Positions 1 to 10,271 of a stretch of DNA of 10,271 nucleotides are shown piece after piece. The notes beneath the pieces were generated by a model, which searched no databases, was not told the DNA's origin, and saw only the letters and a list, made by a program, of their open reading frames with translations. This stretch comes from a virus (taxonomy: Duplodnaviria; Heunggongvirae; Uroviricota; Caudoviricetes). The DNA lies in IMG/VR virus record IMGVR_UViG_2917855067_000001, positions 1-10,271 of that record. The stretch is one strand, 5' to 3'. Made by a program: the position numbers and the translations under genes. Position 1 is the first letter of the stretch; each line of letters starts with the position of its first letter.

Positions 1-296
1 TCAACTCACGTATTTCAATCTGCTCAGGTGTCATGGTAAAGCAGGTGGATTTTCCCGCTTCGCTCTTCTTTCAGTTGTCGAACCCATTTATCCATCGTGG
101 ATTTGCCGACATTCATCGCAGTGGCAGCGGCGGCAACGGTGTAATGCTGATCGAGTACAAGCTGGGCAGCCTCGAGGCGAAACTCGGGGCTAAAATTGCG
201 TCTGTTACGTCCGGTCATAATGTCACCTGTTTTGACTATGAGGTGATGATATCACCTCTATTCAGGTGGCCAAATTTACTATGCCACTACATTTCA
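1..296 (-). mobile_element. IS3-family insertion sequence, one end only (element continues beyond window start)
   Basis: Contains an orfA-type ORF (24..218) whose product resembles IS911/IS3-group OrfA (RNFS.EF...AQLV.DQ.YTVA.AA.AM.VG.STM..WV.QL..ER.GK), with ..[10 protein letters not shown] continuing in another frame at the window edge. About 80 bp of leader separates the orfA start from a putative 5'-TG terminus (complement of CA near 295-296). Exact boundary and IS name cannot be fixed without a reference inverted repeat. Confidence 0.7.
24..218 (-). CDS. IS3-family transposase OrfA (HTH DNA-binding part), apparently frame-disrupted
   Basis: 64-codon [59 protein letters not shown]..., matching recalled IS911 OrfA up to ..ERQGK. 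The expected continuation (GK-S/T-..[10 protein letters not shown]) is readable only in a different frame after the A-run in GGGAAAA, so a 1-nt indel or sequencing error is likely. Confidence 0.6.
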
Positions 297-1630: not shown

Positions 1631-1897
1631 TCATCTGCAATTTTTTTCTACATCTCGAGGAAATGGTGTTGCTAATGCTTTGTCAACTTTGTCCATTGGG
1701 TCTTCATTAATCTTATATTCCGGACCGTCATCTATAGCATTAAATCCAGGTGTTACACCGTTTTCTAATGCATATGCCATTCTCTTTTCCCATCTCGTTA
1801 TTCTCCTTCTGTCTTGAGGTGTAAGACCTCTATCAAATACTTTCCTGTTTTGTCCGCAGTTAGGGTTAACATAGATAGTCTTTTTCACCATAAGCAT
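1631..1897 (-). CDS. Hypothetical protein, AT-rich ORF immediately downstream of N (the slot where lambda has sieB)
   Basis: ORF ..MLMVKKTIYVNPNCGQNRKVFDRGLTPQDRRRITRWEKRMAYALENGVTPGFNAIDDGPEYKINEDPMDKVDKALATPFPRDVEKNCR. Start choice is uncertain (ATG at 1897 or 1891; the track uses TTG at 1903). It abuts the N stop codon. No family recognised. Visibly more AT-rich than its neighbours. Confidence 0.55.
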   Translation of the reverse strand: MLMVKKTIYVNPNCGQNRKVFDRGLTPQDRRRITRWEKRMAYALENGVTPGFNAIDDGPEYKINEDPMDKVDKALATPFPRDVEKNCR

Positions 1898-2496: not shown

Positions 2497-2526
2497 AGGA
2501 AAGAAAAAAGGGGCGAATGCCCCTTA
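2497..2526 (-). terminator. Rho-independent terminator directly after the c2 stop codon
   Basis: On the minus strand, hairpin GGGGC-attc-GCCCC (plus 2510..2523) is followed by TTTTTTCTTTCC. Confidence 0.65.
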
Positions 2527-3174
2527 TGGAAGGTTTGCTATTTTTGCATCGACAACTACACCGATGATTTTGCAGTTCCCGTTGATCTCAATCATCGGAT
2601 ATTGTGGGTTAAGTGGTTTTAGAAACCTTCTGCCAGCATCAATAACTAACTTCTTGAAAGTTGCCTCGTTTTCTCCTTCGAGCTTTGCCACTACCAGCTT
2701 CCCATTACGAGGTTCTACTTCAGGATCGACTAGTATTATCATCCCTTCCGGGATGCTAAGACCGGCTGGAGCCGTCATCGAATCACCCTTTACGTCCAGC
2801 CAAAACGAATCTTCTGAACAATCTACGGTTGTATCGTACCAGTTATCTATTGCACGCTTATGATATGGCTCTACAGCTTCCATCCAACATCCTGCGCTTA
2901 CCCAACTAATTAGAGGATACGAACCTCTTGGATCATGCCTGCTGTGATAGGCAATGTTTGAAAGACTATCTTCTCCTTTCAACAAGTAATCAGGGGAGCA
3001 CTGCAAAGCCTTGGCTAAGGCCAATAGGTTTTCGCCATTGGGCTCAGTTTCAGAACGCTCCCATTGGGAAATAGCAACATTAGACACGCCAACCATCTTG
3101 CCAAGGGCAGCCTGCCTAATCTTGAGTTCTTTTCTGCGAGCGCGAATACGCTCACCCATCAGTTGTGTATTCAT
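2524..3174 (-). CDS. c2: Prophage repressor, P22 C2-type (LexA/S24 peptidase family, lambda cI functional analogue)
   Basis: 216-aa ORF MNTQLMGERIRARRKELKIRQAALGKMVGVSNVAISQWERSETEPNGENLLALAKALQCSPDYLLKG..., near-identical to my recollection of P22 C2. N-terminal HTH and C-terminal S24 autocleavage domain (..GDSM.., ..KIIGVVV..). Divergent from cro across an operator-rich intergenic region. Confidence 0.92.
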   Translation of the reverse strand: MNTQLMGERIRARRKELKIRQAALGKMVGVSNVAISQWERSETEPNGENLLALAKALQCSPDYLLKGEDSLSNIAYHSRHDPRGSYPLISWVSAGCWMEAVEPYHKRAIDNWYDTTVDCSEDSFWLDVKGDSMTAPAGLSIPEGMIILVDPEVEPRNGKLVVAKLEGENEATFKKLVIDAGRRFLKPLNPQYPMIEINGNCKIIGVVVDAKIANLP

Positions 3175-4831: not shown

Positions 4832-6204
4832 AACAGGATATCGAAGCGAGCGTTATCGGTGGCCTGCTGATTGGTGGATTAACACCAACCGCCAGCGACG
4901 TTCTGGCAACGCTGGAGCCGGAAGCGTTTTCAATTCCGCTCTACCGGAAAGCCTTCGAGGTTATCCGCAAGCAGGCGAGAAACAGAAACCTAATCGACGC
5001 GCTGATGGTTGCCGAGGCGTGCGGAGAGGAGCATTTCACGTCAATCCTGATGACCAGCAAAAACTGCCCGAGTGCCGCAAACCTGAAGGGATATGCCGGA
5101 ATGGTCGCGGATAACTATCACCGCCGTCTGGTGCTGGAAATCATGGATGAAATGCGTGAACCAATCCAAAGCGGAACCATCGACGCATCGAGTCAGGCGA
5201 TGGATGAACTTGTAAAACGGCTCTCAGCCATCAGAAAGCCCCGTGACGAGGTTAAACCTGTACGGTTAGGGGAAATCATCACTGACTACACTGACACGCT
5301 TGACAGGCGTCTGAGGAACGGAGAAGAGTCAGATACCCTGAAGACCGGAATCGAAGAACTTGACGCCATCACCGGAGGGATGAACGCGGAAGACCTGGTG
5401 ATTATCGCCGCTCGTCCTGGTATGGGGAAAACCGAACTGGCGCTGAAGATTGCCGAAGGCGTTGCAAGCCGCGTTATTCCTGGTTCTGACGTCCGGCGCG
5501 GAGTATTGATTTTCTCGATGGAAATGAGCGCATTGCAGATTGCAGAGCGAAGCATTGCCAACGCCGGGAGGATGTCGGTTAGCGTGCTGCGAAATCCTGC
5601 ATCGATGGATGACGAAGGCTGGGCGCGCGTTGCTAACGGCATGAGTCAGCTTGCAGATTTGGATGTATGGGTAGTCGATGCCTCGCGGTTATCTGTCGAA
5701 GAAATTCGCTCAATCGCAGAACGACACAAACAGGAAAATCCAAACCTGTCACTCATCATGGCGGATTATCTTGGCCTGATTGAGAAGCCGAAAGCAGACC
5801 GCAACGACCTCGCAATTGCTCACATCTCAGGAAGCCTTAAGGCGATGGCGAAAGACCTGAAAACGCCTGTTATCTCCCTAAGTCAGCTTTCACGCGATGT
5901 TGAGAAGCGACCAAACAAACGCCCGACAAACGCAGATTTGCGTGATTCAGGAAGCATTGAGCAGGACGCAGACTCAATCATCATGCTCTATCGGGAAGCG
6001 GTATATGACGAGAACAGTAGCGCCGCGCCATTTGCTGAAATCATCGTGACGAAAAACCGTTTTGGCTCACTTGGTACGGTTTACCAGCGGTTCTGTAACG
6101 GACACTTTGTTGCATGTGACCAGGATGAAGCCAGACAGATTTGCACAGCATCAAATGCACCTGCTGCGCGTGGCAGACGATATGCACAAGGGGCTGACGT
6201 ATGA
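4828..6204 (+). CDS. Replicative DNA helicase, DnaB family (P22 gene 12-type)
   Basis: 458-aa ORF with DnaB-like N-terminal domain and a Walker A motif ([15 protein letters not shown]). Translationally coupled to the O-like gene. Confidence 0.9.
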
Positions 6205-6281
6205 CCATCTACATCACTGAGCTAATAACAGGTCTGCTGGTAATCGCAGGCCTTTTTATTTGGGGGAGAGGGAAGTCATGA
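6201..6281 (+). CDS. Putative small hydrophobic peptide (26 aa)
   Basis: ATG 6201 overlaps the helicase stop (ATGA). Product [26 protein letters not shown] is a single hydrophobic helix. Its stop overlaps the ninB ATG. Not in the ORF track because it is below the length cutoff. Confidence 0.3.
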
Positions 6282-6766
6282 AAAAGCTAACCTTTGAAAT
6301 TCGATCTCCAGCACATCAGCAAAACGCTATTCACGCAGTACAGCAAATCCTTCCAGACCCAACCAAACCAATCGTAGTAACCATTCAGGAACGCAACCGC
6401 AGCTTAGACCAGAATCGAAAGCTTTGGGCTTGCCTTGGTGACGTCTCTCGTCAGGTTGAATGGCATGGTCGCTGGCTGGATGCAGAAAGCTGGAAGTGCG
6501 TTTTTACAGCAGCATTAAAGCAGCAGGACGTTGCTGAGGTAACAGGCGCAACAGTAACCAGCATAAATCAGGCTGCGGCTAAAATGGCGCGGGCAGGAAT
6601 CTTAGTCATTGATGGTAAGGTCTGGCGAACGGTGTATTACCGGTTCGCTACCAGGGAAGAACGGGAAGGAAAGGTGAGCACGAATCTGATTTTCAAGGAG
6701 TGTCGCCAGAGTGCCGCGATGAAGCGGGTTTTATTTGTTTATGCGGCGGGGGGAGGAAATCAGTGA
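6278..6766 (+). CDS. ninB: NinB/Orf-family protein (recombination mediator) with divergent C-terminal half
   Basis: From ATG 6278 (Shine-Dalgarno GGGGGAGAGGG upstream), the first ~87 residues [85 protein letters not shown] match recalled lambda NinB. The remainder (AEVTGATVTSINQAAAKMARAG...) diverges from lambda but keeps a family-like pattern. Confidence 0.75.
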   Translation: MKKLTFEIRSPAHQQNAIHAVQQILPDPTKPIVVTIQERNRSLDQNRKLWACLGDVSRQVEWHGRWLDAESWKCVFTAALKQQDVAEVTGATVTSINQAAAKMARAGILVIDGKVWRTVYYRFATREEREGKVSTNLIFKECRQSAAMKRVLFVYAAGGGNQ

Positions 6767-6798: not shown

Positions 6799-6861
6799 CT
6801 GTGCGTTGCCGCAAAATCGGCACACGGGATTGGCGTCCCGGATAAGGTAATCGCGACTACT

Positions 6862-6887
6862 ACACGCCGCGAGCGTGTTTTTTATTG
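6862..6887 (+). terminator. Rho-independent terminator candidate
   Basis: Hairpin ACACGC-cgcga-GCGTGT (6862..6878) followed by TTTTTTATTG. Confidence 0.55.
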
Positions 6888-6923
6888 TCGTAAGCATACG
6901 CACATCTGAATTATGGTGGGGCG

Positions 6924-7017
6924 TGTAGGGCCGACTTCGGTCGGGCCGGTTGATTACCCCGGTTACGCCAACCCTACATGTCTCACCACCAAACTGATTG
7001 GCGTCAGCGGTGGTGGT
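6924..7017. repeat. Cluster of GC-rich palindromes (structured element upstream of the Bro-N gene)
   Basis: TGTAGGG (6924..6930) pairs with CCCTACA (6972..6978). Inside: a hairpin GGCC-GAC-ttcg-GTC-g-GGCC with a UUCG-type loop (6929..6947), then GGTTG...CAACC (6948..6973), then CCACCACC-loop-GGTGGTGG (about 6984..7016). Nature unknown. Confidence 0.35.
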
Positions 7018-7041
7018 TAACTTGATTTATAGGTAATCATC

Positions 7042-7647
7042 ATGAGCACACAACTAGTCTTTCATCAAACAAAATTCCATCCTGTTAAACACAACAACAG
7101 TATCTGGCTTACTGCCGTTGAGATTGCTCAAGCTCTCGGATATAAAAAATCTGATGCCGTAACTCAGATCTACGATCGAAATTCCGATGAATTTAGGGCA
7201 GATATGACTGAGACCCTCAATTTGAGTGTCTCAGGGAACTACCAGAAAACAATACGCATTTTCTCCCTCCGTGGTGCCCATTTGATCGCTATGTTCGCCC
7301 GCACTCCTGTAGCCAAAGAATTCCGCCGCTGGGTTCTGGATATTCTCGATCGAGAAGTTCAACAATCCCCAATCACAAAACAATTCACTGATAACGAACT
7401 TTGCACACTCGCCTGGTTATGGCGAGCAGGGGATGTGATGTTAACCGCCTGCCAGAATGTTACTCCACTTCTTCAGGTTGCGGAGCATCGCGAAGCCGGT
7501 CGCTTTACTTCTATTGAGCAAGAATATCCCCAGATACTACATAAGGCGCGCGAAATCCTTGCCAGAGAAACGGCACATGTAAGATTCCAGCCGTGGCAGG
7601 ATGATAAGTGGAGCCGAGTATTGCCGCATTTGCGTTCTGAGCAGTAG
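7042..7647 (+). CDS. Bro-N domain protein (antirepressor / Roi-like family)
   Basis: 201-aa ORF. The N-terminal ~105 aa carry Bro-N-like motifs (..SIWLTAVEIAQALGY.. and ..IRIFSLRGAHLIAMFARTPVAKEFRRWVLDIL..). The C-terminal half is unassigned. Confidence 0.7.
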   Translation: MSTQLVFHQTKFHPVKHNNSIWLTAVEIAQALGYKKSDAVTQIYDRNSDEFRADMTETLNLSVSGNYQKTIRIFSLRGAHLIAMFARTPVAKEFRRWVLDILDREVQQSPITKQFTDNELCTLAWLWRAGDVMLTACQNVTPLLQVAEHREAGRFTSIEQEYPQILHKAREILARETAHVRFQPWQDDKWSRVLPHLRSEQ

Positions 7648-7927: not shown

Positions 7928-8605
7928 TCAGTCGATGGATTCTCCGTAGGATGCAACTGCCTGAGCGACGCAAAAACGATCAATACACTCTATTTCTCCA
8001 TAATCACGCAGGCAATAATAAGTATTATTGTCTTTATCAAAAGCGTAAATGCTACAAATACCCTCAAGCTCACAACTTGCGTCCCATCCACTATTAGATA
8101 ACGTGCCCCATTCCTGGTAAAGCCCTGCGTTAACTTCTCGATTGATAATATGCGGTCCACTATAGTTATCATAATCGTAACTATAGATGTCACGTGCCTC
8201 AGGAAAATTCCCGTTCATGTTTTCAATCCACGGTAAAATATCTTTAACTGAGTTATAAAGTTCAATGCTGTATTTGAAAAAACGCTTCACAATAAAAACA
8301 TAGATGCCGGCAGATTTGTTTGTTGATTTATCAGTGGCGAAAATGACAAAAATCTTCCCAACGCACTTTTCATCTACGCCCGGAAAAGTTACTGTGCCAT
8401 CCTGGCTAACCGCCAGAACATTATTGTCTGCATTAGTGCTACAGGTCCATTTTACCTTGTCATTATTAATAGGGTCATTATCAATGACCATCTTGAAGGT
8501 TGCTCCTGGGAACAAACTGTTAGGGAAACAGTAACCACTCTCCATATCATTTTTAATATCATAGATATGGCTATCAACTAACACGCCTGTAATTTTGCTC
8601 ATCAT
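7928..8605 (-). CDS. Orphan AT-rich hypothetical protein (moron candidate), opposite strand to the phage early operon
   Basis: Long open frame on the minus strand within visibly AT-rich DNA, where long chance ORFs are unlikely. Probable start is ATG-ATG at 8605/8602 with AGAGAG upstream, giving MMSKITGVLVDSHIYDIKNDMESGYCFPNSLFPG... of about 225 aa (the track's TTG start at 8650 is less likely). Cys- and Asp/Asn/Tyr-rich C-terminal part, no obvious signal peptide. No family recognised. Confidence 0.6.
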   Translation of the reverse strand: MMSKITGVLVDSHIYDIKNDMESGYCFPNSLFPGATFKMVIDNDPINNDKVKWTCSTNADNNVLAVSQDGTVTFPGVDEKCVGKIFVIFATDKSTNKSAGIYVFIVKRFFKYSIELYNSVKDILPWIENMNGNFPEARDIYSYDYDNYSGPHIINREVNAGLYQEWGTLSNSGWDASCELEGICSIYAFDKDNNTYYCLRDYGEIECIDRFCVAQAVASYGESID

Positions 8606-9018
8606 TGAACTCTCTTTGTTTGTTAAATAAAAAGTTTTATTCCTGAACAACGGAACACGCTGATATTAATGCAGCCAATGAATTGTTGTTGTTATTTGGA
8701 GGTTATATAGTGGTATGAATGTTATTATGCGATGTCTCTGAGTGATGGGGTAAGGATTATATGATTCGCTTTTGAGATTTACCTATGTCAGGCGTTGCTG
8801 TTCATGTTCGTCCCCGTTGTCAGTCTTCTTAGTCTGAGCTAATGTCATCATCAATGGGTTATCAGTTTTCTCTGAAGTTATATAATTAATTGAGCGCCAT
8901 AGCACCATGGGGCATTGTTGAATTTCATCTTCAATTGATTTTCCATAATCAACTCGCCATAATCATGTCATCGGAGCCTGAACACCTCCGGTGACTTCTG
9001 CGCTAAACGGGGACGTTT

Positions 9019-9120
9019 ATGCGCACACACAATCTAAACTCTCTTCTCCCTTCACAGATGCAGAAATGCACCTGCGATTTTTTGCATCCAACGTTTGACC
9101 TCTGCGGAGGTGAAGCGTGA
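9019..9120 (+). CDS. ylcH: Small ORF, ylcH-like (33 aa)
   Basis: ATG 9019 to TGA 9118..9120 gives [33 protein letters not shown]. Its stop overlaps the ybcN GTG start, the position ylcH holds upstream of ybcN in DLP12. Sequence match to ylcH is not verified. Confidence 0.35.
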
Positions 9121-9572
9121 ACCTCCCACAAGACGGCATCAAATTACATCGCGGCAACTTCACCGCTATCGGTCAGCAGATCCAGCCTTATCTGGAGGAT
9201 GGCAAATGCTTTCGCATGGTGCTTAAACCGTGGCGCGAGAGACGCAGTCTTTCCCAGAATGCACTCAGCCACATGTGGTACAGCGAAATCAGTGAGTACC
9301 TCATCAGCAGGGGTAAAACGTTCGCTACTGCAGTATGGGTAAAAGATGCACTCAAACACACATACCTCGGTTATGAAACCAAGGACCTGGTTGATGTCGT
9401 AACCGGCGAAATCACTACGATCCAGTCGTTACGCCATACCTCCGATCTTGATACCGGAGAGATGTATGTCTTCCTGTGTAAGGTTGAAGCCTGGGCGATG
9501 AATATTGGCTGCCACCTGACTATTCCGCAGAGCTGCGAGTTCCAGCTGCTGCGCGACAAGCAGGAGGCGTAA
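9117..9572 (+). CDS. ybcN: YbcN-like protein (DLP12-type; Orf/NinB-family, reported base-flipping protein)
   Basis: 151-aa ORF from GTG 9117 with GGAGG 6 nt upstream: [67 protein letters not shown]..., matching recalled E. coli YbcN. Confidence 0.85.
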
Positions 9573-10025: not shown

Positions 10026-10258
10026 ATACTTACTACATCACACTACCCTGGCCGCCGAGCAATAACCGCTACTACCGCCATAATCGCGGGCGCACGCACA
10101 TCAGCGCAGAGGGGCAGGTATACCGCGATAACGTCGCCCGAATCATCAAAGGCTCCATGCTGGATATCGGTCTGGCTATGCCAGTGAAATCCGTATTGAC
10201 GTGCCACATGCCGGATCGCCGTCGCCGTGACCTGGATAATCTGCAAAAGCAGCTTTGA
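10022..10258 (+). CDS. rusA: RusA-like Holliday junction resolvase, frame ends prematurely relative to canonical RusA
   Basis: GTG 10022 overlaps the ybcO stop (GTGA). Product [76 protein letters not shown] matches recalled RusA up to ..DNLQK, then reads QL-stop. RusA-like sequence (DALNQ) continues in another frame to the window end. Confidence 0.7.
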
Positions 10259-10271
10259 CGCACTCAACCAA

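Follow-up and report, generated by a model that had tools for sequence, protein, structure and literature searches.

The 88-aa ORF at positions 1631–1897 of the prophage sequence analyzed here (10,271 nt, hereafter the window) is almost certainly the 5′ three-quarters of nun, the gene for the HK022 transcription-arrest and lambda-exclusion factor, and not a separate gene, however the question of its frameshift falls. The remaining codons lie in the next frame, beyond a single extra A in a homopolymer that is probably technical in origin. The gene is already known and well studied, and the finding is in this sense ordinary. Its value is mainly corrective: the slot does hold an anti-phage gene, but a long-characterized one, and the 88-aa frame arose from the homopolymer discrepancy.

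Identification of the ORF as nun

The initial annotation had described an AT-rich ORF of no recognized family directly after the stop codon of N. Translation confirmed the 88-aa frame and its quoted peptide on the minus strand, starting 2 nt past the stop of the N-like gene and with a GC content of 0.378 against 0.462 for the window. The open frame spans 1631–1903 and encodes 90 aa from a TTG, 88 aa from the ATG at 1897, and 86 aa from the characterized Nun start at 1891. The lack of a family, however, did not hold. A PHROG profile search assigned the ORF to phrog_5632, “Nun-like transcription termination factor” (E=8.7e-45, profile positions 1–85 of 112), next to one weak match to a family without known function. 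By megablast, its DNA is ~90% identical to HK022 nun and ~92% identical to nun as annotated in phage mEp235. The rest of Nun (..KKIADEKYEDVMHRVVNHAHQRNPNKKWS*) was found in the +1 frame of a three-frame minus-strand translation, down to the TAG at 1563–1561, and deletion of one A gives a 112-aa translation that aligns end to end, over residues 1–109, with PDB 6ALG chain N (E=1.6e-66). This restored sequence is identical to a database protein (P0016) of Escherichia sp. E14S1 and E1V33, and 88–92% identical to members of the Nun family. These strong PHROG, PDB, and DNA matches are the reason why we assign the ORF to the front part of nun. The 88-aa frame as written is thus a frameshift product without the arrest domain and not a distinct protein; what had been presented as unrecognized and possibly new belongs to a conserved, characterized early-operon protein, ~88–90% identical to that of HK022.

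The initial annotation had also proposed that the slot carries another exclusion or defense cargo in place of sieB, which is indeed annotated between N and orf28/ral in lambda. This proposal was right in kind, as the slot does contain an anti-phage gene, although a known one; sieB itself is absent from the N–ral interval of this prophage. Lambda SieB and Nun share this map interval and are both prophage gene products acting against other phages, but they have no sequence relationship and their mechanisms are entirely different. A SieB-like protein was rejected for want of homology, Nun being the sole strong PHROG match, and tblastn searches with SieB in related loci found nothing downstream of nun. 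An uncharacterized 88-aa exclusion or defense protein of a new family would agree with the zero matches of the ORF in Pfam (E<=0.1) and PADLOC scans and with the names of its relatives at NCBI (P0002 cluster), merely “hypothetical protein” or “transcriptional regulator.” We give this reading virtually no weight, as it is refuted by the Nun matches (PHROG, PDB, DNA), by an ORF end that was created by the frameshift, and by the intact codons that continue in the next frame.

Standard annotation misses nun, as neither Pfam nor PADLOC has a model for it, and this gap explains why the gene was not recognized at first. For the intact nun of two related prophages, in strains CUVM3 and CPww7 (L003 and L004), PGAP calls only a 73-aa CDS (6159–6380).

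The window covers the immunity and early region of a lambdoid prophage, which is listed in Table 1 in leftward order along the minus strand.

Table 1. Features of the immunity and early region of the window, with the nun cassette and its parts
Feature	Positions	Strand	Details
C2/LexA-type repressor	2524–3174		
pL-like promoter	2435–2407		
nutL of the resident phage	2320–2361	minus	boxA GGCTCTTTA at 2361–2353; boxB-like hairpin UCCCGC-CGAAAU-GCGGGA at 2337–2320; not lambda-type
N-like antiterminator gene, 101 aa	1900–2205	minus	phrog_271, E=1.7e-29; stop 2 nt before the first nun ATG
nun cassette, mosaic module of ~480 bp	1526–2007	minus	substitute N 3′ end (last ~35 codons, P_Nun inside), nun, terminator
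P_Nun promoter homolog	1924–1952	minus	−35 ATGCAG (1952–1947), 17-nt spacer, −10 TATAGT (1929–1924); inside the N 3′ end
Full nun footprint	1561–1897	minus	characterized ATG 1891–1889; restored-frame TAG 1563–1561; interrupted by a +1 nt frameshift
88-aa ORF	1631–1897	minus	Met-Leu-Met, Nun residues 1–82, and out-of-frame Asn-Cys-Arg; TGA stop 1633–1631; arginine-rich RNA-binding motif inside
A7 run (T7 on the plus strand)	1641–1647	minus	site of the single extra base, GTAG-AAAAAAA-TTG; A6 in relatives
Out-of-frame 3′ part of nun	1561–1630	minus	encodes Nun residues 87–109 (arrest segment)
Intrinsic-terminator-like hairpin	1533–1559	minus	AGCCCAC-UUCG-GUGGGUU then UAUUAUU; directly after the full-length nun stop
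Remnant of the displaced original N 3′ end, 31 codons	1433–1528	minus	TNRIYYSKPRSEMGVTCVGRQKMKLGSKPLI*; lambda-N-like; phrog_271 positions 139–170
ral	1154–1354	minus	Pfam Ral, E=9e-48; downstream of nun
DUF2528/ea10-like gene	603–971	minus	
cIII and kil		minus	further along the leftward early region

Domains of Nun and proposed mechanism of exclusion

In HK022, the arginine-rich motif (ARM) of Nun binds lambda boxB in the nascent nut RNA, in competition with N (PMC5386594, PMC4124055, PMC4496710), and all the known determinants of arrest are held by residues 87–109 (PMC5386594). The C-terminal residues sit in the active-site cleft of RNA polymerase, where they contact the beta-prime zipper, lid, and rudder, the hybrid, and both DNA strands, and mutants in H98, K106/K107, and W108 are defective in vivo (PMC5386594, PMC4124055, PMC4496710). 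HK022 lysogens are estimated to contain ~100 nM Nun (PMC5386594). The sole known role of the protein is the exclusion of lambda and lambda imm434 (PMC5386594, PMC4124055, PMC4496710). The host factors on which Nun activity depends are NusA, NusB, NusE, and NusG. Nun has been termed a lambda N homolog (PMC4124055), and the two share an N-terminal arginine-rich helix that binds nut boxB as well as a dependence on Nus factors (PMC5386594). They differ in outcome, antitermination for N and arrest for Nun, which is set by the C-terminal segment, and belong to separate PHROG families (271 and 5632, respectively).

The restored protein of the window aligns with all 109 residues of HK022 Nun (6ALG chain N; ARM–boxB complex 1HJI) with ~9 substitutions. 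The motif for RNA binding is in frame in the ORF: Nun residues 22–47 match the Nun ARM peptide of PDB 1HJI (E=2.7e-8, 21/26 identical). The five changes relative to HK022, in Nun numbering, are S24P, R25Q, A31T, I37M, and K42E. Judged by the presence of the motif, this variant ARM is a candidate for the binding of lambda boxB, with the five changes counting against lambda specificity. In the arrest segment, H93, R94, N97, H98, H100, R102, K106, K107, and W108 are all unchanged, and residues 85–109 are identical to those of HK022. As deposited, however, this segment (87–109) is not joined in frame to the ARM, owing to the A7 run; an in-frame combination of both would be present if the extra A is an error.

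The full-length frame is a real gene, as judged from the uninterrupted state of its alleles, the distribution of their variable sites, and the conservation of the C-terminal block. All 61 full-length nun alleles from phages, IMG/VR contigs, and genomes are uninterrupted, single-frame, and A6. Variable sites across them fall at codon positions 1, 2, and 3 in the ratio 10/5/30 overall and 0/1/8 in the C-terminal 27 codons, and homologs of only 57–65% identity, among them one from Citrobacter braakii, still have the block EDVMHRVVNHAHQR-P-KKWS. A chance ORF was rejected on account of the strong third-position bias across nun alleles.

By analogy, the cassette of the window would act as HK022 Nun does when its frame is intact. 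The repressed prophage would make a small amount of Nun from a constitutive P_Nun, as in HK022, and the N-terminal arginine-rich helix would bind the boxB of a nascent lambda-type nut RNA in competition with lambda N. The C-terminal 23 residues would then thread into the RNA polymerase cleft and lock the polymerase to DNA and RNA, thereby halting the transcription of the superinfecting phage. The resident phage, which has a different boxB and its own N, should be spared by its Nun, because it possesses no lambda-type boxB and a different hairpin follows its boxA. Indeed, a search of the window for lambda boxB, allowing 3 mismatches, gave 0 matches, and the boxB-like hairpin of the resident nutL reads UCCCGCCGAAAUGCGGGA.

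A self-contained cassette in the 3′ end of N

Judging from homology breakpoints, nun belongs to a self-contained cassette lodged in the 3′ end of N (Table 1). This conclusion rests on two comparisons. Escherichia coli strain 4114 has the same immunity region and flanks without the cassette, and its homology with the window breaks at 1525/2008, while the segment that HK022 has in common with the window is limited to 1538–2005. The N gene of strain 4114 is uninterrupted and encodes 99 aa, of which the first ~60 residues match the N of the window. Its C-terminus (..NRIYYRKPRSEMGVTCVGRQKMKLGSKPLI) is the same as the remnant found beyond the cassette at 1433–1528, apart from one residue (YYRKP in strain 4114 vs YYSKP in the window). 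It is this 31-codon remnant that separates nun from the genes that follow: ral does lie downstream, as had been stated initially, but not directly.

The cassette is predicted to provide nun with its own promoter and terminator, both of which have conserved sequence features. Placement of P_Nun relies on the “nun gene promoter” signals in the GenBank annotation of phage O276 (MH547045). The −35 hexamer of the window is identical to that of O276 and the −10 hexamer is TATAGT instead of TACAGT; the positions of the promoter hexamers and of the terminator are also the same in HK022. The O276 record was made by an author of the P_Nun paper, a study from 2000 by King and colleagues, and P_Nun is reportedly, going by the title of that study, constitutive in lysogens.

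On the terminator side, the hairpin that had been noticed after the 88-aa ORF exists (1559–1542; −12.1 kcal/mol, z=−2.67, from a terminator scan and folding), but it lies ~70 nt beyond the ORF stop (1631–1633) and directly after the stop of full-length nun (1561–1563). The end of the ORF is not a natural gene end; it was made by the 1-nt insertion in the A-run. A terminator-like hairpin is kept in HK022 with compensatory changes (CCCGCTCAGGCGGG).

Distribution of nun and of its neighbors

IMG/VR contains 58 nun loci, and the gene was traceable in 56 of them. A complete N is located directly upstream in 46 of these 56, with an N of the mEp235 type in 45 and of the window type in a single locus (L062), whereas about 5 of the 56 are HK022-like, with putL. 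A displaced N remnant was found downstream of nun in 49/53 loci, and the gene downstream of nun is ral in 16 and codes for a 207-aa Nmad5 protein in 9. The N–nun tandem is thus the usual arrangement, and HK022, the model system, is therefore atypical.

The same tandem, with the stop of N abutting the start of nun, is seen in N-bearing lambdoid phages such as mEp235 (gp38), mEpX1, and PA28 and in many Stx prophages; in mEp235, a homolog annotated as “antitermination protein N” occupies the same place as the N-like gene of the window. These phages differ from the window in that their nun is intact (112 or 110 aa) and in that their N is mostly of the mEp235 type. In mEp235, the 207-aa Nmad5 protein (PF18757, E=4e-72; mEp235_037, L002 1867–2490) follows the cassette and replaces the orf28 and ral of the window.

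HK022, by contrast, lacks the complete N that precedes nun in the window, and uses put RNA. A comparison of the region just upstream of nun in HK022 and O276 (L001/L065) showed that HK022 keeps ~140 nt homologous to the 3′ end of the mEp235- or window-type N, with P_Nun within. By this remnant, HK022 looks like a derivative of an N–nun phage, having lost the 5′ part of N.

Our literature search, for which older HK022 papers were outside the scope, found nothing specific on Nun homologs in N-bearing phages or on the cassette arrangement. Of wider use is the view of nun as a compact cassette that is present in ~4% of complete E. coli genomes, usually beside an intact N.

Origin of the extra A

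DNA alignment showed A6 in HK022, mEp235, and two 99%-identical E. coli prophages where the window has A7, and the extra A shifts the last 27 Nun residues out of frame. A pattern specific for A7 matched 0 contigs in IMG/VR, against 58 nun loci with A6, 0 species-representative genomes (genome_contigs), and 0 records in metagenome_contigs. Among complete E. coli genomes, 219/5,426 (about 4%) contain a matching nun stretch, and none of these 219 carriers gave a 100% match to short A7 queries in two allele backgrounds. Exact look-up of the truncated 86-, 88-, and 90-aa proteins found none on record, and the 49-aa product called for the broken nun was found on no contig but the source. A single further A7 occurs, in a different nun allele on a metagenome contig (L006) in which the cI and DnaB genes are split and homopolymer deletions are frequent; we counted it against an artifact, although that contig is full of indel errors. 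Database entries have indels at the same A-run (P0010, P0014) and at a second A-run, 1567–1572 (P0009, P0013), which marks both A-runs of nun as indel hot spots, be the changes genuine or technical.

In draft assembly GCA_004745295.1, the window makes up the whole of contig PDIE01000014.1. Two other copies of the prophage were found using its unusual ninB-fusion protein as a tag. The first (L070, a Logan assembly of SRR8068136) has 0 mismatches over 7,979 nt and a sole gap, at the A-run, where it reads A6. The second (L068, RHJQ01000033.1) has 1 mismatch over 10,004 positions and six gaps, namely, the A-run and five 1-nt indels. These five are packed in the last 85 bases of the window (10189–10267), where strain 4114 and L068 both contradict it, and they scramble the 3′ part of rusA (..PVKSVLTCH.. 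vs ..PVKIRIECH..). At the opposite end, the deposited contig has an N at positions 38 and 40; the contig ends thus show signs of low quality. Away from its ends the contig is clean, and since the A-run is the only indel in 5.5–8 kb relative to three close relatives, the mid-contig error rate is evidently low. Because the extra A is private to one draft assembly that contains other indel errors, and otherwise-identical copies have A6, we consider it a probable homopolymer error of sequencing or assembly, with the true prophage encoding a normal full-length Nun.

It is possible, if rather doubtful, that the extra A is real and arose by a very recent slippage mutation in the isolate, in which case nun would be a fresh pseudogene. 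This is how the deposited sequence itself reads, in a part of the contig where quality is otherwise high (one indel in 5.5–8 kb). Homopolymers are natural hot spots of slippage, as the frameshifted database variants at both nun A-runs (P0010, P0009, P0013) would illustrate, and a very recent event would also account for the lack of decay 3′ of the frameshift, where the window does not differ from CUVM3 as far as the stop and hairpin. On the other hand, L070 is otherwise 100% identical but has A6, so the mutation would need to postdate every substitution in 8 kb; plain indel errors and ambiguous bases occur at the ends of this very contig; and A7 was seen in no other clean assembly. Transcription from P_Nun would then yield a product of 85–86 residues (Nun 1–82 and Asn-Cys-Arg) that keeps the boxB-binding ARM but has lost residues 83–109, and with them all the known arrest determinants (PMC5386594), and would not arrest RNA polymerase. 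As Nun and N compete for boxB (PMC4124055), such a product would be at best a competitor of N, and lambda-type exclusion would be either lost or reduced to this competition.

One could also imagine that the extra A is real and that a constitutive, ARM-only Nun(1–82) partially protects the lysogen by occupying lambda-type boxB against N without arrest, slippage on A7 adding traces of full-length Nun. If true, this would be a natural “competitor-only” or switchable form of Nun exclusion, but we regard it as a very slim possibility.

It is similarly improbable, and to a high degree, that A7 is a recoding site, with transcriptional or +1 ribosomal slippage on A AAA AAA, or a phase-variable A6/A7 switch of exclusion. 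Recoding would produce mostly an ARM-only competitor of N and a little full-length Nun. Long bacterial A-runs are known to allow shifts of the kind required here (loss of one A from the mRNA or +1 slippage on Lys codons), and both the A7 in a second allele background and the recurrence of indels at the two A-runs in database entries would be consistent with such a site. However, recoding sites are conserved among homologs, and A7 is absent from every clean relative (0/58 and 0/219), while L006 and several of the variant entries stem from error-prone assemblies. In addition, A7 is short for efficient slippage by RNA polymerase, and the shift site is without a stimulatory element (stop or rare codon). 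With the ~100 nM Nun of HK022 lysogens as a reference (PMC5386594), a rescue of a few percent would amount to negligible protein. A programmed frameshift or slippage was rejected, as the slippery run and the two-frame arrangement are not conserved (61/61 alleles are single-frame with A6).

Additional features of the window

The leader between nutL and N contains another private homopolymer difference between near-identical assemblies: the G-run at 2244–2248 is G5 in the window, CUVM3, and L062 and G6 in the contig of Escherichia sp. E1V33. At the left end of the window, a fragment of an IS3-family transposase orfA (HTH_Tnp_1; 24–218, minus strand) adjoins kil; the related CUVM3 and CPww7 prophages have a complete IS3-family element at this place.

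The nin region contains an antirepressor module of the P1/P7 immI-like or Gifsy isrK type (6807–7647). Rfam models matched isrK at 6807–6883 (61 bits) and a C4 antisense RNA at 6909–6993 (74 bits). Immediately downstream of these come a 35-aa ORF and a Bro-N/P22_AR_C antirepressor-like gene (7042–7647). The minus-strand ORF at 7928–8650 (225–240 aa, GC 0.38) is a moron. It gave only a weak Invasin_D4 match (E=0.004), with no Pfam or PADLOC family assigned, and it accompanies the antirepressor module in several lambdoid prophages that are otherwise unlike (L072–L076). Finally, ninB (6278–6766) is chimeric: normal ninB homology ends at 6533, and the unrelated 3′ part has a weak match to a Crp-like HTH. 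Together with a second, divergent NinB-like ORF at 9117–9572, it brackets an inserted module of ~2.6 kb.
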